From: an uncultured Chloroflexia bacterium
GTDB taxonomy: Bacteria > Chloroflexota > Limnocylindria > Limnocylindrales > CSP1-4
Direction of reading: 5' to 3'
Assembly (NCBI GenBank): GCA_963760735.1
Contig: CAVXEB010000004.1
Coordinates: 519,995 to 583,994, forward strand
Length of the DNA: 64,000 nucleotides
The notes beneath the pieces are model-generated. The model made no database searches. It saw only the letters and a list, made by a program, of their open reading frames with translations, and was not told the origin of the DNA. The translations under genes and the position numbers were made by a program. Below, one piece after another: positions 1-64,000 of the stretch (within the stretch, counting starts at the first letter, position 1; each line of letters starts with the position of its first letter).

Positions 1-2495
1 AGCGCTCCGTCGCGGTTCTCGACGGCGTGGATCTCGACATCCCCGCGGGCGAGCTCGTCGTCGTCGTCGGGCCGACCGGTGCGGGGAAGTCGACGCTCCT
101 CTCGGTCCTGCTGCGCTTCCTGGAGCCGACCGCCGGGCGGGTGACGGTCGACGGCCATCCGCTCGCGGCGATCGGCCCGCAGACCTGGCGCGCGTGCCTG
201 GCGTGGGTCCCGCAGGCACCGCACCTGGTCCACGCATCGATCGCGGACAACCTCCGGCTTGCCCGGCCGGACGCGACCGCCGACGGTCACGCCATCGCCA
301 CCCGCGACGCGGGCGCCGACGGCTTCATCGCCGGTCTGCCTTCCGGCCTCGACACGATCGTGGGGCCGGGCGGCCACGGGCTCAGCGGGGGCGAGATCCG
401 GCGGCTGGCCATCGCCCGCGGGTTCCTCGCGGAGGCGCCGTTCCTGATCCTCGACGAGCCGACCGCGGACCTCGACCCGGCCAGCGCCGCCCGGATCCAC
501 GGGGCCCTCGCCGCGATGCGCGGCGAGCGGACGATCCTCGTCGCCACCCACGACCGGGGCCTGATGGACGTCGCCGATCGGATCGTGGTCCTGGACGCCG
601 GCCGCGTGGTCGCGGCCGGCCCGCCGGCTGATGTCCTCCCGGTCCTGCCGTCCGCGATCGCCACGACCCTGCCCGCCCCGCCGGATGCCGCCGGCCCGGA
701 GCGGGACGCAGGCCCGGACGACGCCTCCGGCGGCCCATCCGACAACGTTGCGGACGCCGTCGCCGCCGGGCTGGGGCGACGGCGACCGCTGCTCCGCCGG
801 CTCGTCGGGCTCCTCCGGCCTCAGGGACGATGGATCGCGATCGGCGCCGGGCTGGGTCTGCTCGTCGTCGTCGCGAACGTCGCGCTCGCGGGCATGTCGG
901 CGTACCTCATCTCCCGCGCGGCGATCGTGACGAACGTCGCCGACGTTGCGCTCGCCGTCACGGCCGTGCGGGTCCTCGCGATCTCCCGCGCCGCCTTCCG
1001 CTACCTGGAGCGGCTCGTCACCCACCGCGCCACGTTCGAGGTCCTCACGACCCTCCGGACGTGGTTCTACCGCTCGATCGAGCCGCTCGCGCCGGCCCGC
1101 CTGGCCGGGATCCGGAGCGGCGACCTCCTGGCGAGGATCGGGGCGGACGTCGACACGCTCGAGACGTTTCCGGCCCGGGTCCTCCTGCCGCCCGTCGTCG
1201 CGATCGGGGTGGTCGGGTTCGGGGCTCTCGTCCTCGCTTCATTCGCACCCGCCCTCGGAGTCGCGCTGCTCGTCGGGTCACTGATCGCGGGGGTCGGCGT
1301 CCCGATCGCGGTTCGGGGTGCCGCCCGGGGTGTTGGAGAGGCCGCGATCGTCGCCCGGGCGGAGCTGAGTGCCGCGGCCGTCGACCTCGTGACGGCGGTC
1401 GGCGACCTCGCCGTCCTCGATCGCGAGGGGCGGTACCGCGCACGGATGCTCGCAATCGGCCGGGATCTGGACCGGCTCCGGCAGCGCGGCGGGATGCTCC
1501 GGACCGCGGGCGAAAGTTCGACCGTCCTCGTGGCCGGACTGACAGGTGCAGCGGTCCTGGCGATCGGCGCCGGCCTGGTGGCAGCCGGCCGACTCGACGG
1601 GGTCGCCCTCGCCGTCGTGACGCTCGCCGCGATCGCCTGCTTCGAGGCGTTCGGGCCGGTCGCCCAGGCCGTCGAGCTCCTGCCTCGCCACGAGCGGGCG
1701 GCGGCGCGGCTGTTCGACCTCGTCGACGTCGCCCCGGCGGTCGTGGATCCTGACCGACCGGCTCCCCGGCCGATCAGCCACGACCTCGACATCCGGCGAC
1801 TGTCCTTCGCCTACGACGGCGGACCGCTCGCGCTCGATGACGTCTCGCTGTCGATCCCGGCGGGCGGCCGGCTCGCCGTCGTCGGCGCGAGCGGAGCCGG
1901 GAAGTCGACGATCGCGAACCTCCTCCTTCGGTTCTGGGACTACGATCGGGGCGAGATCCGCGTCGACGGTCGCGACCTCCACGAGTACCGGATCGACGAG
2001 GTCCGGTCGTGGTTCGGCGTCGTCGACCAGCGCGTCCACCTGTTCAACGGGACGATCCGCGACAACCTCGCGGTCGCCGACGCCGACGCGACCGACGCGG
2101 ACATGGAGCGCGCGTGCCGGATCGCCCAGCTCCACGCCTTCATCGTCGGCCTGCCGGGCGGATACGGAAGCCGGATCGGCCACGACGGCCTGCAGCTGAG
2201 CGGCGGCCAGCGCCAGCAGCTGGCGGTCGCCCGGATGGTGCTGAAGGCCGCGCCGATCGTCGTGCTCGACGAGGCCACGGCCCACCTCGACGAGGCGACC
2301 GAGGCCCGGCTCCTCGAGGCGCTCGAGCCGTTCCTGGCACGCCGGACCGTCCTCTGGATCTCGCACCGTGCCGCGATCTCGCGGTACGTCGACCAGGTGG
2401 TCCGGTTCGACCACGGGCGCGTCGTCGGCGGTCCGGTCGGGCTCGTCCGGATCCGGCCCGATGACGACGGAGGCGACGAGAGCCGGACCGGCTGA
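1..2495 (+). CDS. cydDC: Thiol-reductant ABC exporter, fused CydD/CydC-type. It has NBD - 6TM - NBD, and the upstream part of the first NBD lies outside the window.
   Basis: The frame is open from nt 3, with upstream residues RSVAVLDGVDLDIPAGELVVVVGPTGAGKS (Walker A) and LSGGEIRRLAIARG (ABC signature). A TM block follows, then a second NBD (LSIPAGGRLAVVGASGAGKST, LSGGQRQQLAVARM, VVLDEATAHLD). Confidence 0.6.
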   Translation, partial: RSVAVLDGVDLDIPAGELVVVVGPTGAGKSTLLSVLLRFLEPTAGRVTVDGHPLAAIGPQTWRACLAWVPQAPHLVHASIADNLRLARPDATADGHAIATRDAGADGFIAGLPSGLDTIVGPGGHGLSGGEIRRLAIARGFLAEAPFLILDEPTADLDPASAARIHGALAAMRGERTILVATHDRGLMDVADRIVVLDAGRVVAAGPPADVLPVLPSAIATTLPAPPDAAGPERDAGPDDASGGPSDNVADAVAAGLGRRRPLLRRLVGLLRPQGRWIAIGAGLGLLVVVANVALAGMSAYLISRAAIVTNVADVALAVTAVRVLAISRAAFRYLERLVTHRATFEVLTTLRTWFYRSIEPLAPARLAGIRSGDLLARIGADVDTLETFPARVLLPPVVAIGVVGFGALVLASFAPALGVALLVGSLIAGVGVPIAVRGAARGVGEAAIVARAELSAAAVDLVTAVGDLAVLDREGRYRARMLAIGRDLDRLRQRGGMLRTAGESSTVLVAGLTGAAVLAIGAGLVAAGRLDGVALAVVTLAAIACFEAFGPVAQAVELLPRHERAAARLFDLVDVAPAVVDPDRPAPRPISHDLDIRRLSFAYDGGPLALDDVSLSIPAGGRLAVVGASGAGKSTIANLLLRFWDYDRGEIRVDGRDLHEYRIDEVRSWFGVVDQRVHLFNGTIRDNLAVADADATDADMERACRIAQLHAFIVGLPGGYGSRIGHDGLQLSGGQRQQLAVARMVLKAAPIVVLDEATAHLDEATEARLLEALEPFLARRTVLWISHRAAISRYVDQVVRFDHGRVVGGPVGLVRIRPDDDGGDESRTG

Positions 2496-2522
2496 CGCCG
2501 CGACCGCACCACCGAAGTGGCC

Positions 2523-2548
2523 GGCGGGGCGCGTGACCGCGCCCCGCC
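2523..2548. terminator. Perfect GC hairpin (11-bp stem, 4-nt loop) between convergent cydDC and tadG-like genes; likely a bidirectional terminator
   Basis: ggcggggcgcg-tgac-cgcgccccgcc, located between the cydDC stop at 2495 and the minus-strand stop at 2555. Confidence 0.45.
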
Positions 2549-2554
2549 CGGGGA

Positions 2555-8374: not shown

Positions 8375-10493
8375 GGCCTCCGTTCGGAGAATTGGCTCCG
8401 GCGGCAGGACTCGAACCTGCGACCAAGCGCCTCGTCGGTCGCGGTTTGCCGCACGGCCGGCGTGATCGAATGCGTTCGCGACGCCATCGCTGCGTTCCCG
8501 CGGACTTGCGTTCTAGCGCCAGTCGATACCAACGAACTTCGACCGGCTCGCGGACTCCCTTGAGGGTCAACGCGCGCGGCTCTGAGATCTTGAACCGGGT
8601 TCGCCCGGCCTGCTCGAGGACGTCGCTGGTGACCAGGATCTCCTGACCGGACGCCGCGCCGCCGACGCGGGCGGCGATGTGCACGCCCCGACCGCGATAG
8701 TCACGGCCATCCGCGCGTCGCCTCGGCTGCGTGCAGACCGATCCGCACCGGACGGGGCGAACCCGTGCTCGCGGCGGTGTCGCGTCAGACCGCCGCTGGA
8801 TGTCGACCGCGCATTCGATCCCCTCGCCAGCGCTGTCGAAGGTCACGAAGAAGCCGTCGCCGGTGCTGTTGACTTCCTCGCCGCGGTGACTTGCGAAGGC
8901 CGACCGAAGCTCTCTGTTGTGCCACGAGAGAAGCTCGGCCCACGCCTCGTCGCCCACGAGTCCGACCAGGTCCGTCGAGGTGACGATGTCGGTGAACATG
9001 AACGTCCTGGCGACTCGCGCCGTTGAGGCCGCGGGCCCCTGCTCCTGCCCGAGCAGCACGTCCACTCGCTGCAGGTCGAGCGTCGCGCCCAGCCGCTCGA
9101 AGACGGCCCGAGCCGCTCGGAGGTCCATCCGGGCCGTCGCCTGGATCGCCCTCGGCGGCGATCGCTTCGGCGTAGCTGAAGCCGAGCTCGCGCGCTCTCG
9201 TAGGGCAGATCGTTTTCCATCCACAGCCGCCACGATCGACCGAGGATCGGGGACGCCTCCGAAGGCCGGTCCTCCCCAAGCAGCAACTCGCCCTTCGCCA
9301 TCAGGGCGCCGCCCTCGAACAGCGGTCGCTTGTACCCCGCCGCGATCGACTCGAGCTCTTCGACAGCGCTGCGCGCAGCGTCCAGGTCGCCGACGGGCAA
9401 GGGCAATGTCGATCGCCGCGGGCAGGAGACGTCCCCGCGTGGCCTGATCCACCGGACCCTCGCCCGTCGTTGTCGCAGCCAGCGACCGCTCGATCGAGCG
9501 CCAGGCATCGTCGAGCTCGCCGCGGGCCAGGTGAAGAAGCGCCATGCCTGGCTGCCCGTCATCACCGAGCTCGTACGCGCGCTCGAGGGCATCGGCCGCG
9601 CCCTGCAGGTCGCCCATCCGAAGCCGGATCTCCCCGATCTCGTGGTGGGCGAATCCGAGGCTGTCGTTCAGGCCGAACTGCTGGAGCTCTTCGCAGGCCT
9701 GACGCGCCTCCAGCTCGGCCTCCGGCCATTGGCCGCGGAGCATCTTCAGCTCCGCTCGGTGAACCCGGCAGACGCCCGGATATCCGCCCACTCCCTGACG
9801 GCGCATCCAGCGCTCGCCCTCGTCGGCCCACTGGCCCGCGCGCTTCAGATCGCCGATGTTCCGACAGGCGGCGATCGTGTTGCACAGGATGTCGCTCGCG
9901 ACCCGGAGACCGAGCTGGCCGGAGGTCGCCGCTGCCGCCGCCTCATCGAGAAATGCCAGACCCTCCGGAATGTTGCCCTGGTGCATCTCGCCGTAGCCCT
10001 TGAAGCTCGTCGCCATGAACTGCACGTCGGCGTTGCCGTGCTCCCTGGCCACGGCGATCGCCCGGTCCGCGTGGGCGAGGCCGTCCACCATCCGATGGTC
10101 GAGCATGGCACTCATGCCTGCGAACAGATGGAGCCAGGCGTGCATCCCCGACTCGGGCGTGCCCTCGAGGAGACTCGCAGCGCGCCCCAACCACCCTGCG
10201 CCGACCGATGGCGCCTGACGGCGGAAGAACATGTATGCGAGAAGAAAGGCCGCGCCTGCAGCTTCGATCGGTCGACCGGCCTCCACGTAGGCCGTGAACG
10301 CCCGCTCGAGCATGTCGGACGCCTCATCGGGCTTGCCCACCCACCAGGCGGCCTCGCCCATCCGCTCGAGGTCGTCGGGCGACAGGCCACCTTCGCGGTC
10401 GGCCGCAGCGAATGCCTCCAGCGCCTCCGTCCAGGCGTGGCGCTTGATGGCGTCCCTGCCCAGCTCAATTGAACCGGCCGCCGCGGAATCCAT
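8229..10493 (-). pseudogene. TPR-repeat + class III adenylate/guanylate cyclase (CHD) protein. Its reading frame is broken by two compensating frameshifts (~9400, ~9150), and there is no stop after the CHD.
   Basis: N-terminal TPR-like region (MDSAAAGSIELGRD..., start ~10490), then a good frame-B segment (LPVGDLDAARSAVEELESIAAGYKRPLFEGG..., ORF 8843-9592). It then returns to frame A for the CHD (RTFMFTDIVTST ... GDGFFVTF ... RGRGVHIAARV ... EPVEVRWYRL, ending ~8520). The downstream 96 Arg-rich codons run through the tRNA-like fragment. Confidence 0.45.
8393..8437 (-). other. tRNA 3'-half-like fragment: T-arm + acceptor 3' strand + CCA, with no foldable 5' half. Candidate att core (copy A).
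   Basis: rc = ggtc-GCAGG-TTCGAGT-CCTGC-cgccgga-g-CCA. No complementary 5' acceptor strand lies downstream. A near-identical copy is at 40011-40055, including a compensatory T-stem change. Confidence 0.4.
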
Positions 10494-28586: not shown

Positions 28587-29062
28587 GTGAAGCTGTGCAC
28601 GGTCTGCGGTGTCGTCACCAGCCGCGCTGGTAGCCGCTGCACCGAGCACGCTCGCCAGTCCAACCGCAGCCGGCACAACGCCCTGTACAGCACGCGGGCC
28701 TGGCAACGGCTCAGCGCCCGCGTCCTTCGTGCCTGGCGCGGCGAGCACGGCGACTGGTGTCCGGGCTACAGCGCGCCGCCCACCAAGCGTCGGACCTGAC
28801 CGTCGATCACGTCGTCCCGCTCGCCGCTGGCGGTGCGCCGTTCGACATCGCCAACGCCGTCGTGCTGTGCCGCTCGTGCAACTCGACGAAGGGTGCGTCG
28901 ACCGACCGGGGCGGGGTAGCCCATGTGGCGACGCGGATGCCCGCAGACCGCGCCCGGCGACTGTGTGCACGCGGCCGGGTTTCGCGGATTATCCCGGTCG
29001 CCGATCGGGGATCGGGGCAGGTTCGCCCGTGGGCGCCCACGTTGGCCCACGTGCCGCGATGA
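28587..29062 (+). pseudogene. HNH endonuclease, frameshifted (~28790)
   Basis: Frame 1: CTVCGVVTSRAGSRCTEH ... YSTRAWQRLSARVL; frame 2: DLTVDHVVPLAAGGAPFDIANAVVLCRSCNSTKG. Confidence 0.5.
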
Positions 29063-39500: not shown

Positions 39501-40024
39501 TTGACTCGACATGCCGAATTATTTAGCACTAAATCCAGATTGTCAAGCACGGATCTGAGGGAGTGCCTGCTGGACGAAGGCATGACCTACGACAAGATCG
39601 TCGCCGCAACCGGCATCTGCGAGAACAAGTCCAGCCTGGCCGCGATCCTCGCCAACCCGATCTATCGCGGCGTTCGCGTCTTCAACCGTGCTCACGCAGC
39701 GCCGGCCCGAGAGCTTCCGAGCGGATCAACGTCGAGATCGAGGCGGTTGCGGCCGAGCTTGAAGCGGCCCAGGCGAGAATCGCCGAGCTGGACCAGGCGG
39801 AGCGGCCACTCCGGATCACAACGAAGCTCGTTCGGCCGACGATCGACGACATGAACGGGATCCTCGACCACGCGCCGTTGGCGACGCGGGTGGAGTGGGT
39901 CCGAGACCTGTTCGAGCGGATCGACGTCGACAGTCGCGACGAGAAGGCTGTCGCCGTCTGGAGGGCCGCGACCGACGAGGGTGTTAACCGGTCGGATTCC
40001 GTATACGAGTGGATCCGGCGGTAG
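39501..40024 (+). pseudogene. Large serine recombinase C-terminal fragment, frameshifted (~39700). It abuts tRNA-like fragment B.
   Basis: Frame 3: LAAILANPIYRGVRVFNR; frame 2: INVEIEAVAAELEAAQARIAELDQAERPLRITTKLV ... VEWVRDLFERIDVDSRDEKAVAVW. Confidence 0.4.
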
Positions 40025-40055
40025 GACTCGAACCTACGACCAAGCGCTCCGGCCA
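40011..40055 (-). other. tRNA 3'-half-like fragment, copy B (candidate att core)
   Basis: rc = ggtc-GTAGG-TTCGAGT-CCTAC-cgccgga-t-CCA. It is a direct repeat of 8393-8437 with compensatory T-stem changes. No 5' half could be folded from the downstream sequence. Confidence 0.4.
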
Positions 40056-40726: not shown

Positions 40727-40961
40727 CGGCCAGCGGTCGCCTCCCGGTCTTGCTGTCACACAAAGCCGGGAGCGCAGAGCGGCGGGACGGTGGTGACCCT
40801 AGCGCGGGTCGCTCATCTGCCAGTTATGTGGGTGACTGCGACCATCAGCAGGCGTACGGTCCGCGCCCACCCCGGCGCGCAGGTCTTCCCCCCGTCGTCG
40901 CGTCGGGGCGTCACCACGGTCGCCGGAGTACCGGCCGCGACCCCACCGTCAGGAGGTCGCG

Positions 40962-41200
40962 ATGTCCCGCCGATCCACGCCCGAACGTCTCCACGCGCCC
41001 GCCGCGAGGCAACGCGACAGCGCCTCATGGGCGAGGGCGAACTACCGGATCAGGCCGAGCACCTGGTCGCTCGGTGGGAGCTCCAGGCGGCTCAGGACGG
41101 CCTCGAGCGCGACGGTCGGTACTGGGAGAGGCCGGTCGGGCGTGGATGCTCGCCCAGCGGCGCTAGTCCGGAGACGGTTCACGGCGCCCAGGCAAGGTAG
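40962..41200 (+). CDS. Small repeated hypothetical gene, copy A (needs a 1-nt frame correction)
   Basis: MSRRSTPERLHA...RQRLMGEGELPDQAEHLVARWELQAAQDGLERDGRYWE; paralogue at 45596-45830 with a conserved 35-bp upstream. Confidence 0.3.
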
Positions 41201-46420: not shown

Positions 46421-46612
46421 GATGGTTTCCTCGCGTTTCCGGTTTGATCCGTGTGATGTTCGAGACTGGAAGCGACTCCGAAACTCGTCGGGCTTCGTCT
46501 ATCGCCCGTGTTCGAACACGGGCTGGTGCGTTGCCGCCAGTTGCATGGACACCTTCGTCCCAAGCGTGCGCGTCAGTGACCCGGTCCGCATGACCTCCCA
46601 CGGCCAGCGTCC

Positions 46613-47197: not shown

Positions 47198-47320
47198 CCC
47201 CAGAACTGACGAACGGGACAATGAGGTTCAAGAGGCATAGCCCCGCGACCAGCGACCTTCCGATCACGATGCGGCTGGCCGAGCCGCCCGAGCCCTTCGA
47301 CTGGCTGCGCAGCGCATGAG
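46900..47320. repeat. Repeat-family copy 3 (the longest): Zn-ribbon gene 3' end + conserved leader/uORF
   Basis: Aligns with 23420-23860 and 31591-31680. Confidence 0.6.
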
Positions 47321-47732: not shown

Positions 47733-47741
47733 TCTCAGAGA

Positions 47742-50097
47742 ATGACCCAGATCCTACGGGCGCTCAGCGTTCTCGCCGAGCGCACGATGCTCCCCCTCAC
47801 CGCCGGCGGGCTGGTGCTCGGCCTCGTGGCGACACTCGGCGGCAACGATGCCCTCGCCTGGTGGGCCTGGACCCTCCCGGCCCTGCTCGTCGCCGTCTGG
47901 CTCGCCGCGTCGATCGTCGCCGACCTGATCAAGCATGAGGCGGGCGTCGACATCATCGCGGTCCTGGCGATCGGCGGAGCTCTCCTGCTCGATGAGTCGC
48001 TCGCCGCCGCCGTCATCGCGGTGATGCTCGCCACCGGAAACTGGCTCGAACGCTTCGCGGCGGGCCGCGCCCATCGCGAGCTCTCCGCGCTGATCTCGCG
48101 GGCTCCGCAGACCGTCCATCGCCACGAACGGGGCACGATCGTGGATCACCCAATCGCAGTCGTCGAGGTCGGTGACCGGATCCTCGTGAAACCGGGCGAG
48201 GTTGTGCCGGTGGACGGCGCCGTGACGGGCGTTCCGGCGATCCTCGATGAGTCGGCGCTCACGGGGGAATCGCGGCTCGCCACCCGCCAGCCAGGCGACC
48301 CTGTCAGCTCCGGGACCCTCAACGCTGGGGCTCCGTTCGACCTTGTCGCCGCCGCGACGGCGGAGCGCAGCACGTACGCGGGCATCGTGCGCCTGGTCGA
48401 GGAGGCGCAGTCGTCGAAGGCGCCATTCGTCCGTGTTGCGGACCGCTATGCGCTGTTGTTCGTCCCGCTCGCGCTGGGCCTGGCCGCGCTGGCGTGGATC
48501 CTTTCCGGGGACCCGGTCCGCGCGCTCGCGGTCCTCGTCGTCGCGACTCCGTGCCCGCTGCTGCTCGCCGTGCCAATCGCGATCGTGGCCGGGATCAGCC
48601 GGGCGGCGCGCCGAGGGATCATCGTGAAGGGCGGGGGCGCTCTGGAGTCCATCGCACGGGCGCGCGTTCTCCTGTTCGACAAGACCGGAACGCTCACGGC
48701 CGGGCGCCCCCAACTTGCCGATGTCGTGACTGCGCCCGGCCAAACCGAGCACGATGTGCTGCGGATCGCCGCCTCACTCGAGCAGGTCTCGCCACATGTC
48801 CTCGCGTCCTCGATCGTCGCCGGCGCCCGTGAGCGCGGCGTCGCGCTCGTGCTGCCTGAGAGCGTTGTGGAGGTCCCGGGCTCTGGCGTCTCGGGTGGCG
48901 TCGCCGGTCACACGGTCCTGGCGGGCACATCGGACTTCGCGAGTGGAGGAGCCGGCCTGCCTGGCTGGGCGCGGGACGTCCGACGCCGGGTGAGCCTGGA
49001 AGGCGCGACGAGCGTGTTCGTGGCCATCGACGGGGTCCTGCTCGGGGCACTCGTGCTCGAGGACCCGATCCGCCCCGAGACGCCCAGGGTCATCCGATCG
49101 CTGCGCCGGGCCGGTGTGCGCCGGACCGTCATGGTGACCGGCGACCAATACGGCGTCGCCGACATGGTGGCTGAGGCGATCGGCGTCGATGCCGTGCTGG
49201 CGGAGCGCACGCCCGCCGACAAGGTGGACGCGGTCACGGGCGAGCGAGTCGAGGCCCGCGGCGTCCTCGTCATGGTCGGCGACGGGATCAACGACGCGCC
49301 GGCCCTCGCGGCTGCCGATGTCGGCGTTGCCATGGGCGCCCGCGGCGCGACGGCAAGCTCCGAGGCCGCGGATATCGTCATCACCGTCGACCGGCTGGAC
49401 CGCCTGCCGGAAGCGATCCGGATCGCCCGCCGGTCGCGCACGATCGCCGTCCAGAGCGTGGCGGTCGGGATGGGCCTGTCGATCGCGGCGATGCTGGCGG
49501 CGATGACCGGCGCATTAGCGCCTGTCGCCGGCGCGCTCCTCCAGGAGGCCATCGATGTCGTCGTGATCCTCAACGCTCTGCGGGCGCTGGGCGGTGGCCT
49601 GGAGAAGGTCCCCAAGATCCCGGGCTGGACGGAGATCAGCACCCGGCTGCGCAACGAGCACCGCGTGCTCGCGCCGTCGATCGCGCGGCTCCGAGCGGTG
49701 GCGGACGGGCTGGGCGACTTGCCGGCGGGTTTGGCCCGCGACGAGCTCGAGGAGATTCGCTCGTTCCTCCTGACGACGCTCATTCCCCACGAGGAGGCCG
49801 AGGACCGGGAGGTGTTCCCGCTCCTCGCCGTGGCGATCGGAGAACGACGACGTGACGGCCTCCCTGCACCGCACCCACACCGAGATCTTCCACCTGATCC
49901 GATTGATGGACCGTCTCGTAGCGGAGGTCTCCGAGGAGGGTCCGGGGCCCGAGGACCTCACGGACCTGCGACGCGTCCTCTACGGTCTCGACGCGATCCT
50001 GCGCCTGCACATGGCCCAGGAGGAGGAGCTCTACTCGGCGCTCGGGGACGAGCACCCCGATGCTTCTGCCTCTCCCGCCATCACCGAAGCGGCCTGA
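47742..50097 (+). CDS. P1B-type heavy-metal ATPase, P1B-5-like (TPCP motif, no N-terminal HMA), with C-terminal hemerythrin-like domain. There is an apparent frameshift at ~49850 inside the hemerythrin domain.
   Basis: LTGESRL, ATPCPLLLA (TM6 TPCP), FDKTGTLT, MVGDGINDAPAL. Hemerythrin-like HEEAEDREVFPLL continues in the next frame as TEIFHLIRLMDRL ... LRLHMAQEEELY (ORF 49852-50097). Confidence 0.6.
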
Positions 50098-50479
50098 TGA
50101 TGGGCCACTCTCGAACGATAAGCCGCTCAAGGGTCGCACCGTTTCGTGACCAACGGCGCTTGGAGCGCCGCCGTTCCCGGGCTACCGTCATGGACAGAGG
50201 AAGGCGCGCCTCGCGCCGAATCAATGGGCCGACCTCGTCGTCAGCCGCCTATCGACTGAGGGATCTCATGACGCCACCCACAACTTCCACTCCGCGCGGA
50301 GTCGGAGTCGGCATCGGGGCCGGGATCGGCGCCGGCGTCGGCCTCGTTGTTGCGCTTCTGGTCGGGGTTGAGGTCGGGCTTGGGCTCGCCTTCGGGGCGG
50401 CACTCGGCGTCGTCGCGGGACTCTTGCTCGATTCCGCCTGGACCTAGGCGGACCGCGGGTACGACCTGAGAGGACCTCG

Positions 50480-53421: not shown

Positions 53422-56220
53422 TCAACCGGCGGCACGATCACCGTGGCGTGCGACTCGCGGCTCGGACCCGTGGACCTGCGCCGACGCTCTCGGTGCCCGG
53501 CCGGCGTGCGGCCCGGACGTCCGGCGCCCGACCCACTTCTCGACCTCGACGGCCGTGAAACCGAGGGTCGAGGCGACCAGGACCAGTAGCAGTTGGGGCA
53601 GGGTCAAGGCGACCGTCCCGAAGATCGGCTGCAGGGCCGGGACGAAGATGAGGGCCATCTGCACGACGAACGGTGGCCGCCACCGCGATCGTCAGCGGCA
53701 GGTTCGATCGGAGGCCGAGCCGGAACAGGCTGTCCGTCTCCGACCGGATGGCCAGCGCGTGCCCGAGTTGGAGGAGCGCCAGGGTCGCGAAGACCATCGT
53801 CTGCCACGGCCAGCCCCGGCCGATCGCGTATGCCTGGACCGCGAGAGCGACGGACGCCATCAGCAGCCCGACCCAGATCGTGTGCTGCCACAGGCCGCGG
53901 GCGAAGAGCGATTCGGACGGCGATCGCGGCGGCCGGCGCATCGTGCCGCGCTCCGTCGGCTCCACGCCGAGGGCGAGGGCCGGCAGCCCGTCGGTGACGA
54001 GGTTGACCCACAGGATCTGGACCGCGAGCAGCGGGAACGGGAGGCCGAGGAACGGGGCGAGCGTCATCACCCAGATCTCAGCGGAGTTGGTGGTCAACAG
54101 GTAGCGTACGAAGCGCCGGATGTTGTCGTAGATCCGGCGGCCTTCCTCGACGGCGGCGACGATCGTCGCGAAGTCGTCGTCGGCGAGGACCATGTCGGCC
54201 GCCTCCTTGCTGACCTCGGTCCCGGTAACGCCCATCGCGACGCCGATGTCGGCCAGTCGCAGGGCCGGAGCGTCGTTCACGCCGTCGCCCGTCATCGAGA
54301 CGACCGCCCCACGGCGCCGCCAGGCGTCCACGATGCGGAGCTTCTGTTCGGGGCTCGTCCGCGCGTACACGGCCACATCGGCCACGATCGCGTCGAAGGC
54401 GGTCGTCGTCGAGCTGCTCGAGCTCGGCGCCGGTCAGGCTGCGTCCGCCCTCGCGCAGGACGCCGATCCGTCGCGCGATCGCGTTGGCTGTCAGCGGGTG
54501 ATCGCCGGTGATCATGATCGGCGTGATGCCGGCCGCACGGCAGGCCGCGATCGACGGGGCCGCGGCCTCGCGCGGTGGGTCCGCCATCCCGACGATCCCC
54601 AGAAGATGGAGACCGTGCTCGGCGTCGTCGAGCCGGGCAGGGACGTCGTCGATCGTGCGCTCCGCGAATGCGAGCACGCGGTAGCCGTCGACGGCGTAGC
54701 GCTCGGCGACGCGCTCGGCCCGCCGCAGCACGTCGGCCTCGATCGGATCGAGAAGGGGTCCCATCGCCTCCAGCGCGCCCTTCACCGCGACCCAGACCTC
54801 CGCACCGGCCCGGTGGATGGTCGCCATCCGTCGCCGCTCGGAGTCGAATGTCAGCTCTTCGACCCGCGGGCGGGCGGCCGTGACCACCTGCGGATCCACG
54901 TCGAGCTTGGCGGCGAGGGCGAGCAGCGCTCCCTCGGTCGGATCGCCGCTGATGGTCCATGAATCACCGCTGGTCGCCGGGGCGTGGAGCGATGCGTCGT
55001 TGCAGGCCGCGGCGACCGCGGCGAGTCGCTCCAACGCGGTGTCGTTCGCCGGCTGGGGATCGAACCGTCCGGTCGGCGCGTAGCCATCGCCGCTCACGCG
55101 ATAGTCGCCGCTCGGCGTCCAGACCCGCTCGGCCAGCATCCGGTTCTCGGTCAGGGTGCCGGTCTTGTCGCTGCAGATCACGGTGACCGATCCGAGGGTC
55201 TCCACGGCCGGCAGCTTGCGGACGAGCGCGTGTCGCTGGGCCATTCGTCGGGCACCCAGCGCCAGGGCGATCGTCACGACGGCCGGCAGCCCTTCCGGGA
55301 TGGCCGCCACCGCGAGACTCACCGCTGTCAGGAACATCACGTCGGCCGGCTCGCCACGGGCGACGCCGCTGACGAACACGAAGATGCACACGAGGAACGC
55401 CGCGACTGCCAGTCGCTTGCCGAGTGTCGACAGCCGCCGTTGGAGCGGCGTCCGGCCACTGCCGTGTTCCTCGAGGAGTTCGGCTACGCGCCCGAGGGCC
55501 GTCTCCATCCCGGTCGCCACGACCAGGCCCAGGCCGCGCCCATAGGTCACCGCGGTGCCACTGAAGGCCATGTTCCGTTGGTCGGCGAGGACCGCCGCGG
55601 TGACATCCGAGATCGGAGCCGTGATCTTGCTGGCGGGCTCCGATTCCCCCGTCAAGGCCGCCTCGTTGATCCTCAGGGATCGAGCCTCGATCAGGCGCAT
55701 GTCGGCGGTTACGACGTCCCCCGGGTCGAGCCGCACGAGGTCACCCGGAACGAGCTCGGCCGCCGGGACGACGATCGTGACCCCGGCGCGAATGATCCGC
55801 GCCGACGGGCTGGTCATCCGTTTGAGCGCGTCCATCGCCTGTTCAGCCCGGTATTCCTGGACGAACCCGATGATCCCGTTGAGCGCGACGATGATCAGGA
55901 TGATGGCGGTGTCCTTGAGGTCGCCGATGGCCGCGGTGATGGCGGCGGCGGCAAGCAGGACCAGGATCATCGCGTTCGTGAACTGCTCGGCCAGCAGGCG
56001 CCAGGCGGGCTTGGCGGCACGCTCCTCGAGCTCGTTCAGCCCGTGGGTGATCAGACGACGACGAGCCTCATCGGGATCGAGGCCCCGGTCCGCATCGGAG
56101 CCGAGGGCGGAGACGACCTCCAGGGCGTCGAGCGCCCACGGGTTCGGGACGCGGTCCACCTCCGCTACGTGCAAGGTCTGCACGCCCGAGGATCCGCCAG
56201 CGGCCGGGAGCACGCTCATG
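53422..56220 (-). CDS. P2-type cation-transporting P-type ATPase (Ca2+/Mg2+-like) that needs two single-nt frame corrections (~54390 and ~53670)
   Basis: [24 protein letters not shown], (frame 2) [14 protein letters not shown] ... [13 protein letters not shown], (frame 3) [27 protein letters not shown]; start MSVLPAAGG ~56220. Confidence 0.6.
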
Positions 56221-56467
56221 TTGTCGGTTCCAGTTCGTCGCACGCGGCGTAGTCGGGGCGACGTCGGCCGGTACGATCCTGAGCCTCGACGCCGAGACGC
56301 GCCCGGCAAAAGTGCCGATCGGACCGATCGGCCGCATCGGCCGTCCTGAATCAGGCGATCCGGCACTTCGCGCCGAAGTCGGACCACCCTGGCGTTGGGC
56401 TCGGATCGGCCTCGACCGCGCCAGCGGACAGGTCCTGGTTCCAACGGAGACGAGATGGACGGCCCGT

Positions 56468-57198
56468 ATGCGTAGCGCGGCGCTCGACGCTCGATCGCTG
56501 CCGCAGGCCTCGGATCCACACGAGACACGGGCGAACAGCGTCCTTCGACCGATCGTCTTCGGTGCGAACGATGGGCTGGTTTCCAACCTCGCCCTGGTGA
56601 TGGGCGTCGCTGGCGCGACGTCGGACAACGGGATCATCGTGCTCGCCGGGGTGGCAGGGCTCATCGCTGGCGCCTTCAGCATGGGCGTCGGCGAGTACGT
56701 CTCGGTCCAGAGCCAGCGGGAGCTGCTCGACTACCAGCTGGCGTTCCAGCGCAAACAACTCCGTGAGGCCCCCGACCAGGAGCGGGCGATCCTGGCCAAG
56801 CTGTATGTCGAGCGTGGGTTCGGCCGCGACGAGGCCGACCGGTTCGTCGACGCCGTCTTCGCCGATCCGGACCATGCCGTTCGCTTGCTCATCTTCGAGG
56901 AGGTCGGCCTTGATGCCCGGTCGATCGGCTCGCCGCTGGCCGCCGCCGCCGGTTCGTTCGTCGCGTTCACGACCGGCGCGTTCATTCCGCTCGTCCATAC
57001 CTCCTCGGCGCCGGGATGCCCGCGTTCGTGGCCAGCCTGCTGGTCAGCCTGGCCGCGCTGGCGTTCCTCGGGGCGGGGATCGCCACACTGACCCGCCGAC
57101 CGGGCTGGTACGGGGCTTTGCGGCAGGTCTGCCTCGGCGCCGTCGCGGCCGGGTTCACCTACGCCGTCGGCGTTGTGATCGGGGTCGGCGCCCGTTGA
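56468..57198 (+). CDS. VIT1/CCC1-family iron/manganese transporter, with a frame break at ~56995 caused by a C-homopolymer contraction
   Basis: RPIVFGANDGLVSNLALVMGVAGA; a C-terminal helix appears only after a +1 shift (PYLLGAGMPAFVASLLVSLAAL ..., ORF 57016-57198). Confidence 0.6.
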
Positions 57199-58293: not shown

Positions 58294-59222
58294 CAGGCGA
58301 TCTCCCGAGTCACAGCGGGTCCCGCGGCGCCGTTGCCGGTCGCGTCGGACTCGTAGAAGCGAAGGAAGACGTCCTCGACGTCGGGGGTGGTGATGGCCAC
58401 GTCCCGGAGTTCCAACTCGACGATCCGCCGCAGTAGCGGACGTACGTCGCCCCGGACCATGAGGTGCACCTCGCGGCCCGTGTCCGCGATCACCTCCACG
58501 TCGGGCATCTCAAAGACACCTGGATCGTGCGCCTCGGCGAGGGCGAGGTTGACCGATCGCCAGTGCTCGCCGAGGAGTGCCTGCACCGGTCCCACTTCAG
58601 TGAGGCGCCCCTCCCGGATGACTGCGACGCGGTCACAGCATCGCTCCACCTCGGGCAGGTTGTGCGAGGAGAGGAAGACCGTCCGACCCTCGGACCGCGC
58701 CTCGGAGACCAGGCTAAGGAACTCACGCTGCATCAGCGGGTCGAGACCGCTGGTGGGCTCGTCCATGATCAGCAGCTTCTCGCGACCCATGAAGACGGAG
58801 ACCACGCCGACCTTCTGACGATTGCCGCGCGATAGCTTTCGAATCTGGATGCTGCGGTCGAGCTCGAGTCGCTCGGCCAGCCGCCTCCAGGCGCCCGCGG
58901 GAAGCCCACGCAACCCGGCGAGGTAGTTGAGCTGCTCCGCCACAGTCAGCTCGCCGAGGAACCCAGGATCACTCCCGAGATAGGCGAGGTTGCGGTGGAC
59001 AGCTGCCGCCTGCGCCCAGGTGTCCAGTCCGAAGATGCGGGCCATGCCCCCGTTCGGACGGATCGCCCCGAGAAGCAGCCGGATCGTCGTCGTCTTGCCG
59101 GCGCCGTTCGGCCCGAGGAAGCCGAAGACCTCTCCTTCGTCGACCCCAAAACTCAGCTCGACGACGCCCCGACGGGAGCCATATCGCCTGGTTAAGCCTG
59201 TCGCCTCGATGACCTCGGACAT
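58293..59222 (-). CDS. ABC transporter ATP-binding protein
   Basis: GFLGPNGAGKTTT, LSRGNRQKVGV, LLIMDEPTSGLD. Confidence 0.8.
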   Translation of the reverse strand: MSEVIEATGLTRRYGSRRGVVELSFGVDEGEVFGFLGPNGAGKTTTIRLLLGAIRPNGGMARIFGLDTWAQAAAVHRNLAYLGSDPGFLGELTVAEQLNYLAGLRGLPAGAWRRLAERLELDRSIQIRKLSRGNRQKVGVVSVFMGREKLLIMDEPTSGLDPLMQREFLSLVSEARSEGRTVFLSSHNLPEVERCCDRVAVIREGRLTEVGPVQALLGEHWRSVNLALAEAHDPGVFEMPDVEVIADTGREVHLMVRGDVRPLLRRIVELELRDVAITTPDVEDVFLRFYESDATGNGAAGPAVTREIA

Positions 59223-59720
59223 TGCCGCATCCTTTCAATCTGCAGCGAAGTGTCGGACGCGAGTTCGCCCTTCGTCCTGCTCGGAGCCGGCTCAGCCGGG
59301 GACGGTGGCAACTCGTCACCGGGTACATCGATCGGTCTCGCCGGCACCCTGGTCGATCGATTTGGCCGTGCGCTCGCGCCGATCAGGTTGATGCGGCGTT
59401 CGACAGCCGGGGCGACGCGCGGCCCGAGGATGATCCCGATCGGAAGCGCCACGATCGCCGGGACCCCGATCAGGAGCAAGGCTGCGTAGGGAACCCCCAC
59501 GACGCTGAGCATGATGCTGATCGCGCCGATCTCTCCACCTAGTGAGGTGGCCGACGCAAGCGCCCGCGTCATCCGCGCCGAGACATAGATGACGCCGGCC
59601 GCGAGGCCCAGGGCAAAGGCCCGGATGCCCCGTCCACCGATCCACGGCGTACCAGATGCCGATGCCTGCCAGCGGCCCTGCGATCGCGACGCCGAGCGCG
59701 GGGAGATTCATCGCCTCCCG
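59192..59720 (-). CDS. Hypothetical small membrane protein, apparently frameshifted (two partial ORFs 59192-59572 / 59316-59801)
   Basis: MNLPALGVAIAGPLAGIGIWYAVDRWTG (frame a) and SLGGEIGAISIMLSVVGVPYAALLLIGVPAIVALPIGIILG (frame b). Confidence 0.3.
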
Positions 59721-59856
59721 CTCGCGCATCTCGTCCTCCTTCTGCCCAAGGAGACTTCCGGTGAAGAGGACGCTACGGGACTCGGGACGGCACGGCGTCA
59801 CCCCGATCGGGGAAGTCCGTCACCCGTATGGGTGAAATCAGGCCGTATGGGTGAAA

Positions 59857-60487
59857 TCAGGCCCGACGGATCAGTCCGAGTTCGCGGGCGCGCGCTGTCG
59901 CCTCGAGTCGTGACGAGACGCCGAGCTTCCCGTACAGGTGCTCAAGGTGCGTCTTCACCGTGTTCCCGGACACGACGAGATGTTGGGCGATCTGGCGATT
60001 CGACATTCCAGCCACGAGCAGACCGAGGATCTCCCGCTCCCGTGCAGTCAGCGGCTCAACAAGGCTCGTCGATGACTCGATCTCAATCTGACTGCCAATC
60101 GCTGCACGGCCTGGTCGCGTGACCGCCGACGCACCCAACACGACGACAAGGAGGAACAGGGACAAGGGCGGCCAGGTCCTCGATCGTCCCAACCGGAAGG
60201 CCGCCGGCCGGCCGAATAACCAGCACGACGATCACGGCCGCTGCGCCGAATGCGACAAGCACGGACGGCCAGAAGCCGACCTGACGGGCGAGCAGGATGA
60301 GGACGGCCGCGGCTCCGAGCCAGATGGCATCGACCTCATCGCCGGGGATCAGCATCTCGACGGCCACGACCACGACGAGGACGCCGATGGCCGCGAGCGC
60401 CAGTCGGCCGAGGAATCGCTCGAGCGAGCCGCCGACGAGGGCTCCGTCGCGCAGCTCGTTGACGGTGGCGAATGTGAGACCGGGCAT
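59857..60487 (-). CDS. Membrane-anchored LuxR-family regulator (N-terminal TM domain + C-terminal LuxR HTH), with a frame break at ~60150
   Basis: Frame 1 TM: LAAIGVLVVVVAVEMLIPG ...; frame 2: LTAREREILGLLVAGMSNRQIAQHLVVSGNTVKTHLEHLYGKLGV. Confidence 0.5.
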
Positions 60488-61025: not shown

Positions 61026-61972
61026 CGCTCGTGATCGACGGGCTGAGGAAGCGGTTCGGAGACATCGTCGCACTCGACGGCGTCGGGTTCAGCGTCGGTT
61101 CCGGCCAGGTCTTCGGGTTCCTGGGACCGAACGGAGCCGGCAAGACCACGACGATGCGGATTGTCCTCGACATCCTTCACCCGGACGAGGGCACGGTCAC
61201 TTGGAACGGCGTCAACGTGACGACCGTGCCACGTCGGACGTGGGGGTACCTGCCGGAGGAGCGCGGGCTCTATCCGCGGATGGGCGTCCTCGAACAGCTC
61301 GTCTTCGTGGGATCGCTGTATGGCGTCCGGCGCGACGAAGCCGCCCGACGGGCGCGGTCGTGGCTCGCGCGCTTCCGGATCGCGGACTATGCGGATCGGC
61401 CCGCAGAGCAGCTCAGCAAGGGCAACCAGCAGAAGGTGCAGTTCATCGCCGCGATCCTCCATGACCCCGACGTCCTATTGATGGACGAGCCCTTCACCGG
61501 CCTCGATCCGATCAACGCGGCCCTCGTGCGGGACGCATTCCTCGAGTTGCGTGACCGGGGCAAGGCGCTGATCTTCAGCACCCATCAGATGGAGGCGGTC
61601 GAGGAGCTCTGCGACGCGATCGCGATCATCGACCGCGGACGACTCGTTGTCTCCGGCGCGACAGCGGACGTCAAGCGTGCGAGCGGCCGGCGCGTCGTCC
61701 GCCTTGGGGTTGCGGGCGATCGTGATCTCGAGTGGCTCGACGCCCTGCCAGACGTGACCGTCCGTCGCTCGGGCCTCGACTTCCATGAGGTGGAGCTCCG
61801 CGATGGGCGAGATCCGGAGCGGATCCTTGCCGAGGCGCTCGCCCGTCACGAGTACGTGACGCGGTTCGAGATCGCCGAGCCGTCGATCGAGGACATCTTC
61901 GTCGAACGCGTGGGGGCGCCGACAACGGACGAGCGGACGCTTGCGGCTGATCCGGCCGGGCTGGCGGCATGA
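61022..61972 (+). CDS. ABC transporter ATP-binding protein
   Basis: GFLGPNGAGKTTTMRI, LSKGNQQKVQF, LLMDEPFTGLDP. Confidence 0.8.
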   Translation: MTLVIDGLRKRFGDIVALDGVGFSVGSGQVFGFLGPNGAGKTTTMRIVLDILHPDEGTVTWNGVNVTTVPRRTWGYLPEERGLYPRMGVLEQLVFVGSLYGVRRDEAARRARSWLARFRIADYADRPAEQLSKGNQQKVQFIAAILHDPDVLLMDEPFTGLDPINAALVRDAFLELRDRGKALIFSTHQMEAVEELCDAIAIIDRGRLVVSGATADVKRASGRRVVRLGVAGDRDLEWLDALPDVTVRRSGLDFHEVELRDGRDPERILAEALARHEYVTRFEIAEPSIEDIFVERVGAPTTDERTLAADPAGLAA

Positions 61973-63302
61973 GTGCGTTCACGCGCGCCGACCTTCGGAA
62001 CATCCTCGCCGTCGCACGGCGCGAGTTCACCGTCCGCGCACGAACCCGGACGTTCCTCGTCTCGACCGCGGTCCTCGTGCTCGTGGCGCTCGCCGTCGGC
62101 TTCGCGCCCGTCGTGATCTCGTACTTCAACCGGGAGTCCACGCACGTGGCCGTGTACGTCGGCGCGAGCGACCTGCACGGGGATCCGGTGGCCACCCTCG
62201 ATGCCCTCCTCAACCCCGCGGATAGCGGCGAGCACGGGCGCGAACAACGCTCCAGCGTTCAGCGTGCGGCGATCGACGGACCTCGCCGCCGACCGCGAGC
62301 TCGTCCGCACTGGGCAGCTCAATGCCGTGCTCGACGTCGAACGGGGCGCGACCGGCGATGTCGCCTTCACGGTGTATACGAATGAGCCGAGCAGCAGCCG
62401 CACCGCCGCCATCAGCCGCCAGGCGGCGACGTCGATCGCCGTCGCCGACCGGCTCGGACGCCTCGGCCTCGATCCGGCATCGCAGACAAGCCTGTTCGTT
62501 CCGCCGGATCTCGCATTCCGGTCGCCCGATCCAACAGCCTCATCAGTGGTTCCCGACACGCTCGCCCAGGAGGTGGCCGACCTCGCGGTCATCTCGGCGC
62601 TCGAGATGTTCCTCTTGCTGGCGATCATCATGTACGGGACCTGGATCGCCCAGAGCGTCGTCGAGGAGAAGAGCAGCCGGATGATGGAGATCATCCTGGC
62701 GGCCGCGACGCCCATGCAGATTCTCGCCGGTAAGGTCCTCGGCGTGAGCGGGGCGGCCCTGCTCCAGTTCGGCGCGGTCCTCGCGGCGGTCGTGGCTGCG
62801 TTGCTCTTGCAGGGTCAGGTCGCCGCCGTCGTGCTCGGCGACAGCCAGGCCGGCGTACCGTCCGGCCTGACGGCCGAGTTGCTCATCACTTTCTCGGTGT
62901 TATTCGTCCTCGGGTTTGTCCTCTACGCGGTTCTGTTCGCCGCGATCGGCTCCCTCGTCAGCCGCCAGGAGGACGTCAGCCAGATCGTTACGCCGCTAAC
63001 GCTCGCCGCGTCCGCGGGCTACTTGGTAGCCGTCTACACCTCGATCGGGACGTTCGACCCGAACGCGCCTTGGGTGGCCGCGCTGTCCTGGGTGCCGTTC
63101 CTGTCGCCCGTACATGATGCTGTCGCGCCTGGGCGTCGGTACCGCCGGGATCCCAGAGGTCGCCCTTTCGGTACTGATCCTGCTGGTCACGATCGTCGCC
63201 GCCACGTGGATCGCCGGTCGCGTCTACGCCGCGGGCGTTCTCATGTACGGGCAGAAGCCGAGCATTCGCGGGATGTGGAAGGCGGTTCGGGAGGCCAGCT
63301 AG
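61969..63302 (+). CDS. ABC-2 type permease with large extracytoplasmic loop, needing two frame corrections (~62230, ~63110)
   Basis: Three consecutive ORFs (61969-62385, 62201-63625 useful part to ~63110, 63114-63302) give a continuous permease: N-terminal TM, loop, ISALEMFLLLAIIMYG ... EEKSSRMMEIILAA ... C-terminal LSVLILLVTIVAATW. Confidence 0.5.
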
Positions 63303-63381
63303 ATGCGGACAGCGTTTCGCAGGATCAGGTCCCGCGCGTGGACACGGCGTGTGGGCCCGCCCAGCGAGGGGAGAGAAGAAG

Positions 63382-63897
63382 ATGCCTGTCACCGGAACGC
63401 GTGAGCAGTCTCCGCACCTGCAGCCGCGTTGGTTCATCCGCTCGTTCTGGGTGGCTCACCGGGCCCTCTATCGAACCACCGGGGGTCGGGTCGGGCTTCG
63501 ACGCCCGACACCCACGCGCTGGGGCATGCTGCGCCTCCGGACGCTCGGGCGTCGCACGGGCGAGGAGCGCAGCGCGATCCTCGGCTACTACGAGGACGGC
63601 CCCAACCTGGTCACCCTGGCGATGAACGGCTGGGCCGAGGGCGAGCCGGGCTGGTGGCTCAACCTCCAGGCACGCCCCGATGCGATGGTCGATCTGGTCG
63701 ATGGGCCGCGCAAGGTCAGGGCGCGCGCCGCCGTGGGCGATGAACGCGCGCGCCTCTGGGCCGGGTGGCGCGACGTTGGCGACGATGTCGACGCCTACGC
63801 GCCATTACGGTCCTCCGAGACAGCCGTCGTGGTCCTGGAGCCACTGCCAGCCGATAGCAGTCAGACGCATACGGCAGATGAGCCTGCGCAACGCTAG
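63382..63897 (+). CDS. Deazaflavin (F420)-dependent nitroreductase-family protein, paralogue of 27954-28421
   Basis: GRRTGEERSAILGYYEDGPNLVTLAMNGWAEGEPGWWLNLQARP. Confidence 0.65.
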   Translation: MPVTGTREQSPHLQPRWFIRSFWVAHRALYRTTGGRVGLRRPTPTRWGMLRLRTLGRRTGEERSAILGYYEDGPNLVTLAMNGWAEGEPGWWLNLQARPDAMVDLVDGPRKVRARAAVGDERARLWAGWRDVGDDVDAYAPLRSSETAVVVLEPLPADSSQTHTADEPAQR

Positions 63898-63908
63898 GAG
63901 CGGAGAAG

Positions 63909-64000
63909 GTGAATACAAGTCGAACGATCGCCGAAGCGGCGAGGGCGCCGGGCATGAGTGCGGATCGGAAGGTCGCCATCTGGGTCGGCGTTCTGTACAT
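63909..64000 (+). CDS. 5' end of a probable DUF4386-family gene (runs off the window)
   Basis: GTG ... MSADRKVAIWVGVLY resembles MRKTALVAGILYLITF of 27163-27957; this gives the same nitroreductase/DUF4386 pairing in reversed order. Confidence 0.3.
   Translation, partial: MNTSRTIAEAARAPGMSADRKVAIWVGVLY

Follow-up and report, generated by a model that had tools for sequence, protein, structure and literature searches.

Single-base frame breaks in eight conserved genes of a Chloroflexota metagenome assembly: probable consensus errors

When conserved domains in one stretch of bacterial DNA repeatedly leave one reading frame and continue in another, are the genes decaying or is the sequence wrong? 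This question is raised by a window of 64,000 nucleotides (64 kb, the whole stretch of DNA analysed) from an uncultured Chloroflexia bacterium. The original prediction counted at least 12 genes in need of single-base correction, although its own list named 10, and preferred assembly indel errors to mass pseudogenisation. Codon-usage Viterbi decoding, Pfam profiles and DNA alignment placed a frame change at or near each of the 13 sites listed, and the breaks are thereby confirmed as real features of the deposited sequence. Alignment to relatives revealed at least 17 single-base indels in eight otherwise well-conserved genes, and these very probably arose as consensus errors when long reads of a metagenome were assembled; all eight genes are most likely intact and functional in the organism itself.

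Frame breaks in the deposited sequence

The Viterbi analysis was run unbiased over the window, independently of the listed sites. It switched frame on the same strand at 9395, 9190/9147, 39718, 49838, 54401, 53671, 56997, 59642, 62233 and 63107, in each case with an upstream frame free of stops. Two further switches, at 24953 and 27902, were dropped as extra frameshifts since they are ordinary gene boundaries, between an unassigned ORF and a Polyketide_cyc2 gene and between DUF4386 and F420H2_quin_red, respectively. With a lower penalty, short compensated excursions were suggested as candidates at 37786-37825 and 42997-43058. Pfam profile coordinates ran on from one frame to the next in the P2 ATPase and VIT1, and joining frames raised the matches of ABC2_membrane_3, Hemerythrin and Guanylate_cyc. 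For the HNH shift homologues were decisive, as joining left its Pfam score unimproved. When five corrected proteins were searched as one chimeric query, homologues were obtained solely for the HNH protein and the recombinase; those of the LuxR regulator and the small membrane protein came from separate searches. Rfam gave no match over the window, and the single ARAGORN call, a tRNA-Arg at 1644-1735, falls within a long ORF and is probably a false positive. A plasmid megablast with the 39-64 kb region returned short ATPase matches only, and thus no close plasmid relative.

Indels were called as one-nucleotide differences private to the window in DNA alignments to relatives of 82-96% identity, and every break in the eight genes coincides with one (Table 1). 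Fourteen of the 17 are +1 insertions and three are -1 deletions, a density of about one frameshift per kb over the roughly 15.6 kb of coding sequence for which an alignment to relatives was possible. Their spread is uneven: an 863-bp stretch of the cyclase gene contains seven, and several fall where the relatives themselves vary. All lesions in the eight genes are one-nucleotide indels, and nonsense mutations and larger lesions are absent. Correction restores full-length ORFs, as expected of an artefact; internal stops are absent from these, and each native stop examined was recovered.

Table 1. Features with frame changes in the 64-kb window.
Feature	Coordinates	Strand	Lesion
TPR-adenylate/guanylate cyclase gene	8513..10493	-	seven private +1 insertions: 9394, 9177, 9144, 8788, 8749, 8714, 8532
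HNH endonuclease N-terminal region	28587..28951	+	-1 at 28769
Large serine recombinase remnant	39572..40036	+	~470-bp internal deletion 39687-39690, 5' truncation
Small gene copy A	40852..41163	+	relative to paralogue copy B (45486-45797, 84% nt): -1 near 40996, +2 near 41130
P1B-type ATPase with C-terminal hemerythrin domain	47742..50097	+	+1 at 49841
P2-type cation ATPase	53422..56285	-	+1 at 54403 and 53669
VIT1-family iron/manganese transporter	56393..57198	+	-1 at 56994 (CCC to CC)
Small membrane protein (164 aa in homologues)	59235..59729	-	+1 at 59615, -1 at 59270
Membrane-anchored LuxR/GerE regulator (about 210 aa)	59857..60487	-	+1 at 60157
ABC-2 permease (443 aa corrected)	61969..63302	+	+1 at 62233 and 63106

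The affected genes and their relatives

The sites listed in the original prediction were found, but five others had been missed (8788, 8749, 8714, 8532 and 59270). Four of these lie in the cyclase gene. Here both predicted breaks are present, but the one given as about 9150 consists of two insertions (9177 and 9144), and the total is seven by alignment to the contig L081 (93% nucleotide identity). The corrected gene encodes 657 amino acids and ends at its native stop; most of the homologues listed measure about 654-660 amino acids. Once the frames are joined, coverage of the Guanylate_cyc profile grows from 10-73 to 10-173 of 183. A public gene call on a 2,099,827-bp contig, P0001, is 754 amino acids long and 100% identical to the mis-framed version in the window. 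The intact orthologue, 93% identical, differs mostly at third codon positions. The dN/dS is 0.18 overall and 0.15 over the 113 codons that the assembly puts out of frame, where the differences are distributed 2/4/16 by codon position.

Among the metal transporters, the P1B ATPase insertion reads CGGAGAAC in the window and CGG-CAAC in relatives. It is the sole frame-breaking indel relative to four JGI short-read contigs, and the true stop (TGA, 50095-50097) is common to the relatives. Hemerythrin is matched in both frames, with 23 and 27 bits apart and 51.6 bits joined (profile 4-123 of 127). In the P2 ATPase, the successive frames carry Hydrolase 2-137, then Hydrolase 147-191 with Cation_ATPase_C 1-128, and then 129-175 of the latter. 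Neither insertion is found in L001, L008 or L009. The orthologues are single ORFs in L001 (937 amino acids), L009 (947 amino acids) and the short-read contig L005, and the corrected ORF terminates at the L009 stop. Over 245 codons past the first shift, dN/dS is 0.05-0.08. The VIT1 break had been predicted as a contraction of CCC to CC, and this reading was exact: the window has GT-CCATACC, and the extra C is carried by four relatives (GTCCCATACC), including the short-read contig L002 (GTCCC). The VIT1 profile runs from 1 to 159 in one frame and from 154 to 213 in the next, and dN/dS is 0.21 upstream of the shift and 0.26 downstream.

The HNH break is likewise a contraction, from CC to C (TA-CAG in the window, TACCAG in a relative). 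The homologues P0127 and P0130 match frame 3 up to about 28763-28778 and frame 2 thereafter, and alignment to the JGI contig L155 (85% nucleotide identity) contains one gap, with the HNH Pfam match in the second frame. In the small membrane protein, a break had been expected near 59550; it is present, but lies at 59615, where a three-way DNA alignment resolves TT to TTT on the gene strand. The homologues P0144-P0149 place the tblastn frame break at 59607-59644 and the C-terminus in another frame. For the LuxR regulator, the coding score passes between frames at about 60175 and tblastn breaks at 60164/60165, and in the homologues P0139, P0141 and P0142 a single polypeptide contains both the membrane domain and GerE. 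The insertion at 60157 is a +1 relative to both L153 and L154. The same two contigs hold intact 443-amino-acid gene calls for the ABC-2 permease, with both insertions private to the window. Joining its frames raises ABC2_membrane_3 from 98.5 to 128.7 bits and extends the profile match from 53-312 to 3-345 of 347.

Origin of the indels

The indels exist and are confined to this assembly, and the codons in which they lie remain under purifying selection. Values of dN/dS range from 0.05 to 0.33, also in segments that the assembly leaves out of frame, and selection there is undiminished. The comparison with orthologues that the original prediction had called for found single ORFs in Illumina assemblies. 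Contigs of short-read style are intact at the tested sites (L002, L005, L082-L086 and L155), the Flye-named contig L081 is intact at the cyclase sites, and L001, L008, L009, L153 and L154 likewise lack the indels of the window. Some of these reference relatives are error-prone long-read contigs themselves. L153, at 96% nucleotide identity, has its own private +1 insertions at 57464, 58710, 58775, 59323 and 63895, with an ABC ATPase called in two pieces of 166 and 143 amino acids. L001 has a private +1 at 51416 and a split ABC-2 permease, and mis-framing is plain to see in the database proteins P0136 and P0140. The nearest genomes are Nanopore MAGs of Microflora Danica, assembled with Flye --meta and polished once with Medaka, in an account whose consulted parts describe no short-read polishing (PMC12313526).

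Taken together, the lesion spectrum, the retained constraint, the intact short-read relatives and the private errors in long-read relatives favour consensus error over pseudogenisation, in agreement with the original prediction. The deposited sequence would then be a long-read MAG of a high-GC, Limnocylindrales-like Chloroflexota with uncorrected single-base errors, in which 14 extra and three missing bases split each of the eight genes into pieces in different frames. We infer that the indels are absent from the organism's own DNA. Their clustering and their occurrence at variable sites may have a local origin, for instance in low coverage or in the co-assembly of strain variants.

If transporters and regulators had been widely pseudogenised in the very recent past, as might happen in a +1-prone mutator lineage, this would explain why the indels stand in the deposited sequence and recur in the public gene call. 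True gene remnants do occur in the same window, and the LuxR gene of L154 has an in-frame stop. Nevertheless, gene decay should bring relaxed constraint and mixed lesions. These were found in the recombinase, whereas the eight transporter, regulator and HNH genes have neither, and their out-of-frame segments are as constrained as the rest. Seven insertions in a 2-kb gene would require long neutral evolution, yet the intact orthologue is 93% identical, and the 96%-identical relative has other private insertions in other genes. Bacterial pseudogenes are known for a deletional bias; 14 insertions against three deletions are the opposite, and this was counted in favour of artefact. Pseudogenisation is therefore very unlikely. 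Even less likely is its specific form, in which a soil Chloroflexota mutator has just begun to inactivate its metal transporters, ABC exporter, LuxR regulator and cyclase by real +1 insertions, before relaxation becomes visible.

Two other readings keep the window sequence as it is. Programmed ribosomal frameshifting or transcriptional slippage could yield full-length proteins, and each break is indeed a single +1 or -1 step with an open downstream frame. But orthologues at 82-96% nucleotide identity are unshifted at every site, which means that the shift lacks conservation, and no motif is common to the sites. We know of no recoding pattern with seven shifts in one gene, and such recoding is scarcely conceivable here. 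Alternatively, the window could be correct and the relatives in error, and private errors can be demonstrated in L001, L081, L153 and L154, all of them long-read contigs. Yet at each site all relatives side against the window, including Illumina-based JGI and megahit/SPAdes-style contigs, and their version gives full-length ORFs that match Pfam end to end and fits the common length of the cyclase homologues; the chance that all of them are wrong is negligible.

Consensus error, the preferred reading, does not carry its usual mark. The textbook Nanopore signature is homopolymer deletion, and the original prediction had attributed the breaks mainly to homopolymer contractions. That attribution does not hold for the set as a whole: nine of the 14 insertions are not beside an identical base (the other five extend one), and errors are not concentrated in homopolymers. 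Two of the three deletions are CC or CCC contractions, and clear run contractions are confined to VIT1 and HNH. Insertion bias and non-homopolymer context depart from the textbook signature and count against the preferred reading. As a lead, the inserted base and its neighbour equal two alleles among the relatives at 63106, 54403 and 53669; this 'allele-merging' pattern misfits 49841.

Genuine decay, consequences and known parallels

Not every lesion in the window is an artefact, and mobile-element remnants are ordinary there. The break in the serine recombinase near 39700, originally predicted as a single-base error, is due to the ~470-bp deletion, and the alignments show the gene to be a genuinely degraded remnant. 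Window positions 39572-39690 correspond to 796-914 of L156 (96.6%) and 39687-40036 to 1385-1735 (97.4%). By tblastn with P0126, residues ~210-247 and ~396-516 of 516 remain, and the 5' 623 nucleotides are missing. The frame change predicted near 41000 in copy A is present, but its support comes solely from its own paralogue, copy B, which has an in-frame TAG. Copy A had no attributable match in the chimeric search and no Pfam family above threshold, and both copies are possibly decayed. An ABC ATPase tail elsewhere in the window has an 11-nt deletion.

The importance of these results is practical rather than biological: intact genes should be annotated for two P-type ATPases, VIT1, the ABC-2 permease, the LuxR regulator, the TPR-cyclase, the HNH protein and the small membrane protein. 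Public calls such as P0001 are chimeric, mis-framed proteins that pollute databases and clustering, and further mis-framed relatives are present in the 50%-identity representative set. At about one frameshift per kb in the regions checked, pseudogene counts, metabolic reconstruction and coding density of the MAG are unreliable until it is polished. Insertion-biased, clustered errors outside homopolymers may also interest those who tune long-read metagenome polishing.

Three known systems invite comparison. Decayed integrative elements leave truncated large serine recombinases beside tRNA-derived, att-like fragments. Here the catalytic N-terminus of the recombinase is gone, as is an internal stretch of 470 bp; tRNA 3'-end fragments occur at 8393-8430 and 40010-40047, and partial gene duplicates lie nearby. 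This likeness fits the mobile-element genes at ~23-47 kb only, not the transporters and regulators. Mycobacterium leprae and recently host-restricted symbionts underwent mass pseudogenisation in reductive evolution, and they resemble the window in having many broken genes per unit length, transporters and regulators included. However, real pseudogenes combine nonsense mutations with large deletions and IS insertions, have a deletional bias and drift in dN/dS towards 1, none of which applies to the eight genes. Residual indels in Nanopore or PacBio CLR assemblies split and truncate predicted proteins and are a recognised problem of long-read-only MAGs. The usual account, of deletions in long homopolymers, differs from the present insertions, mostly outside runs, and from their strong clustering. 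The window is like such assemblies in its private one-nucleotide indels in conserved ORFs, at about one per kb assessed, in its Flye-named relatives with the same kind of error and in the megabase size of its source contig.

Frame breaks in codon usage and protein profiles

Because the G+C content of the window is ~70%, long spurious open reading frames (ORFs) are common, and ORF length by itself tells little. Frame breaks were located with codon log-odds trained on nine long, high-GC3 ORFs and a seven-state Viterbi segmentation (six frames plus non-coding) across the window, which made no use of the list in the original prediction. Same-strand frame switches at 9395, 9190/9147, 39718, 49838, 54401, 53671, 56997, 59642, 62233, and 63107 essentially matched the predicted coordinates, and no upstream-frame stop was found at these positions. 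The remaining switches mark ordinary boundaries between genes, where a stop lies at the junction. Switches at 24953 and 27902 were rejected as frameshifts, as Pfam shows separate genes on either side. With a lower switching penalty, short excursions to another frame at 37786-37825 and 42997-43058, within two otherwise continuous genes, could represent pairs of mutually compensating indels, or simply noise.

Pfam profiles are divided among frames. In the P2 ATPase, frame A matches Hydrolase 2-137, frame B Hydrolase 147-191 and Cation_ATPase_C 1-128, and frame C Cation_ATPase_C 129-175; the VIT1 profile runs across two frames (1-159, then 154-213). Joining frames extended Guanylate_cyc from profile positions 10-73 to 10-173 of 183 and raised ABC2_membrane_3 from 98.5 to 128.7 bits (53-312 to 3-345 of 347). 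Hemerythrin, matched by both frames of the P1B ATPase tail, scored 23 and 27 bits as pieces and 51.6 bits when joined (4-123 of 127).

Single-base differences from relatives

Species-representative genomes were scanned with the P2 ATPase for relatives. The closest are uncultured Chloroflexota: 'MFD...bin' MAGs with Flye-style contig names, and short-read MAGs of Candidatus Limnocylindrales. In total, 17 single-base indels were found in eight genes, comprising 14 insertions and three deletions. The original prediction thus understated the sites and overstated the genes, claiming at least 12 while listing 10.

Single-base indels of the window by gene (window coordinates; L numbers are contigs of relatives)
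Gene	Insertions (+1)	Deletions (-1)	Comparison
TPR-cyclase	9394, 9177, 9144, 8788, 8749, 8714, 8532		Private to window vs L081 (93% nt)
HNH		28769	vs JGI contig L155
P1B ATPase	49841		Sole frame-breaking difference vs four JGI short-read contigs (81-82% nt)
P2 ATPase	53669, 54403		Private to window vs L001, L002, L008, L009
VIT1		56994	Private to window vs L001, L002, L008, L009
Small membrane protein, membrane LuxR, ABC-2 permease	59615, 60157, 62233, 63106	59270	Private to window vs L153, L154

Over 53.4-57.2 kb, L001, L002, L008, and L009 align at 87-89% nt identity, and VIT1 is intact in all four. The P2 ATPase ortholog is a single ORF in L001 (937 aa), L009 (947 aa), L008, and the short-read contig L005. 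The base reading predicted for VIT1 was exact, with GT-CCATACC in the window and GTCCCATACC in the relatives. Over 57.4-63.9 kb, L153 aligns at 96% and L154 at 91%. Homologs of the small membrane protein continue uninterrupted through 59615, and homologs with both parts within one 215-231-aa protein prove the membrane-LuxR fusion (tblastn break, 60164/60165).

The seven cyclase insertions form two triplets, each arithmetically restoring frame, and one that abolishes the native stop. The cyclase query retrieved P0001, a 754-aa database protein 100% identical to the as-assembled frame, on a 2,099,827-bp NCBI/ENA contig. Evidently, this protein is how the locus itself was called in the public annotation; the homologs among the matches listed mostly have ~654-660 aa. 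The P1B ATPase stop at 50095 is common to the window and the four JGI contigs. Once corrected, this gene ends at 50097, whereas the as-assembled ORF had 901 aa; the leftover tail at 50266-50447 (+) resembles a separate small glycine-rich membrane protein (…GVGVGIGAGIGAGVGLVVALLVG…).

Degraded elements, repeats, and other differences

The serine recombinase, originally listed as a single-base error, is genuinely degraded relative to the intact 516-aa gene of L156. The remnant retains nt 796-914 and 1385-1735 of that gene at 97% identity, with an internal deletion of 470 bp and the 5' part absent. Copy A of the small gene (40852-41163, +) differs from its paralog copy B (45486-45797) by one -1 and one +2, which may be errors or decay; copy B itself contains a TAG in frame. 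A homolog search with a chimeric query found no outside homolog of copy A.

Two 38-nt minus-strand segments (8393-8430 and 40010-40047), 92% alike, are tRNA 3'-end fragments (T-arm, acceptor strand, CCA), neither within a complete tRNA. The latter overlaps the end of the recombinase remnant, and the C-terminus of the homolog P0125 is the tRNA-derived peptide 'QDSNLRPSD'. The fragments resemble att-site remnants, and a degraded integrated element of 31.6 kb may lie between them. Three copies (83-84% nt) of one segment, at 23468-24076, 31591-31898, and 46934-47541, are non-coding in the codon model; in L155, the matching DNA holds a weak HTH/GerE gene of 105 aa, with a resolvase gene upstream of it. 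The copies appear to be repeated units of a serine-recombinase mobile element. The stretch at 32051-32485 (+) matches residues 185-329 of P0132 at 87% identity; the N-terminus of P0132 matches the HNH gene at 28551-28754. The stretch probably derives from the C-terminus of another recombinase-like protein and would then be a further mobile-element remnant.

A 429-bp direct repeat (30060-30488 and 46014-46442) is 99.3% identical and ungapped. Its copy at ~30.1-30.5 kb duplicates, in truncated form, the 5' part of a putative RibD_C-like gene (45839-46498). Because this copy abuts a putative ParB-like ORF (29541-30076) that also looks truncated, a rearrangement junction seemingly lies near 30077. 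Pfam gave no match to either the RibD_C-like or the ParB-like ORF.

In its 3' tail, the ABC ATPase gene (58293-59222, minus) is shorter than in L153 and L154 by 3 nt and 11 nt (58312, 58338); the last ~13 residues are replaced, and the stop now overlaps the ATG of the next gene. This is probably a real variant of a non-conserved tail, as it exceeds the size of a consensus slip. An 18-19-nt tandem duplication between the small membrane gene and LuxR (59828-59864; GGGTGAAATCAGGCC GTAT GGGTGAAATCAG) is absent from both contigs. The L154 LuxR ortholog (locus 9263-9960) has an in-frame TGA within its GerE domain (GMSN*QIAEHL), arising from substitutions with no indel, which reflects either genuine nonsense mutation or an erroneous substitution in L154. 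A 92-nt tRNA-Arg(CCT) called by ARAGORN at 1644-1735 (+), inside the strongly coding ORF 27-2495, is probably a false positive and is without Rfam support.

Assembly error weighed against gene decay

The original prediction favored assembly errors over mass pseudogenisation, a preference upheld by the corrected ORFs, coding constraint, relatives, insertion excess, and error density in the cyclase. The corrected ORFs have no internal stops; the cyclase recovers its family's stop codon, the P2 ATPase terminates at the L009 stop, and the P1B ATPase TGA is common to relatives. Segments that the assembly puts out of frame show no loss of constraint: differences in those of the cyclase fall 2/4/16 by codon position (dN/dS 0.15, versus 0.18 for the whole gene), and dN/dS is 0.05-0.08 over the 245 P2 ATPase codons past the first shift. 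In the proposed ortholog comparison, the indels were private to the window and the short-read relatives unbroken, with no coding frameshifts across the aligned genes.

Long-read relatives carry their own breaks. L153 has private +1 insertions at 57464, 58710, 58775, 59323, and 63895, and its ABC ATPase is annotated in two pieces (166 and 143 aa); in L001, the ABC-2 permease is split and a private +1 lies at 51416. The database homologs P0136 and P0140 are visibly mis-framed, and P0146, a 15-member cluster in which the small membrane protein has 137 aa, owes this form to the L153 insertion at 59323. These insertions and mis-framed calls indicate that the problem is widespread in the lineage's public data. 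The nearest relatives belong to the Microflora Danica long-read catalog, whose methods, as described, comprise Flye --meta and one Medaka polishing round and mention no short-read polishing; where coverage is lower, its authors report errors associated with Nanopore sequencing (PMC12313526).

Contrary to the original proposal, most of the errors are something other than homopolymer contractions. Two of the three deletions (VIT1, HNH) are such contractions, but nine of the 14 insertions have no adjacent identical base. Seven of the 17 errors lie inside 863 bp, where ~0.94 are expected (Poisson, ~15.6 kb of assessed coding sequence; P(>=7) ~6e-5, uncorrected for post-hoc choice), and such clustering suggests a local cause. 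The inserted base and its neighbor together equal the two alleles seen among relatives at 63106, 54403, and 53669; collapsed strain variation would fit these sites, although 49841 does not follow the pattern and the idea is no more than a lead.

We infer, with strong support, that the single-base frame breaks are assembly errors and not a biological feature. The value of this finding is a warning about the assembly and the mis-framed proteins it gave public databases. Real bacterial pseudogenes show a deletional bias; the insertion excess found here is the opposite and points to artifact, and seven insertions in a gene 93% identical to an intact ortholog are irreconcilable with neutral decay.
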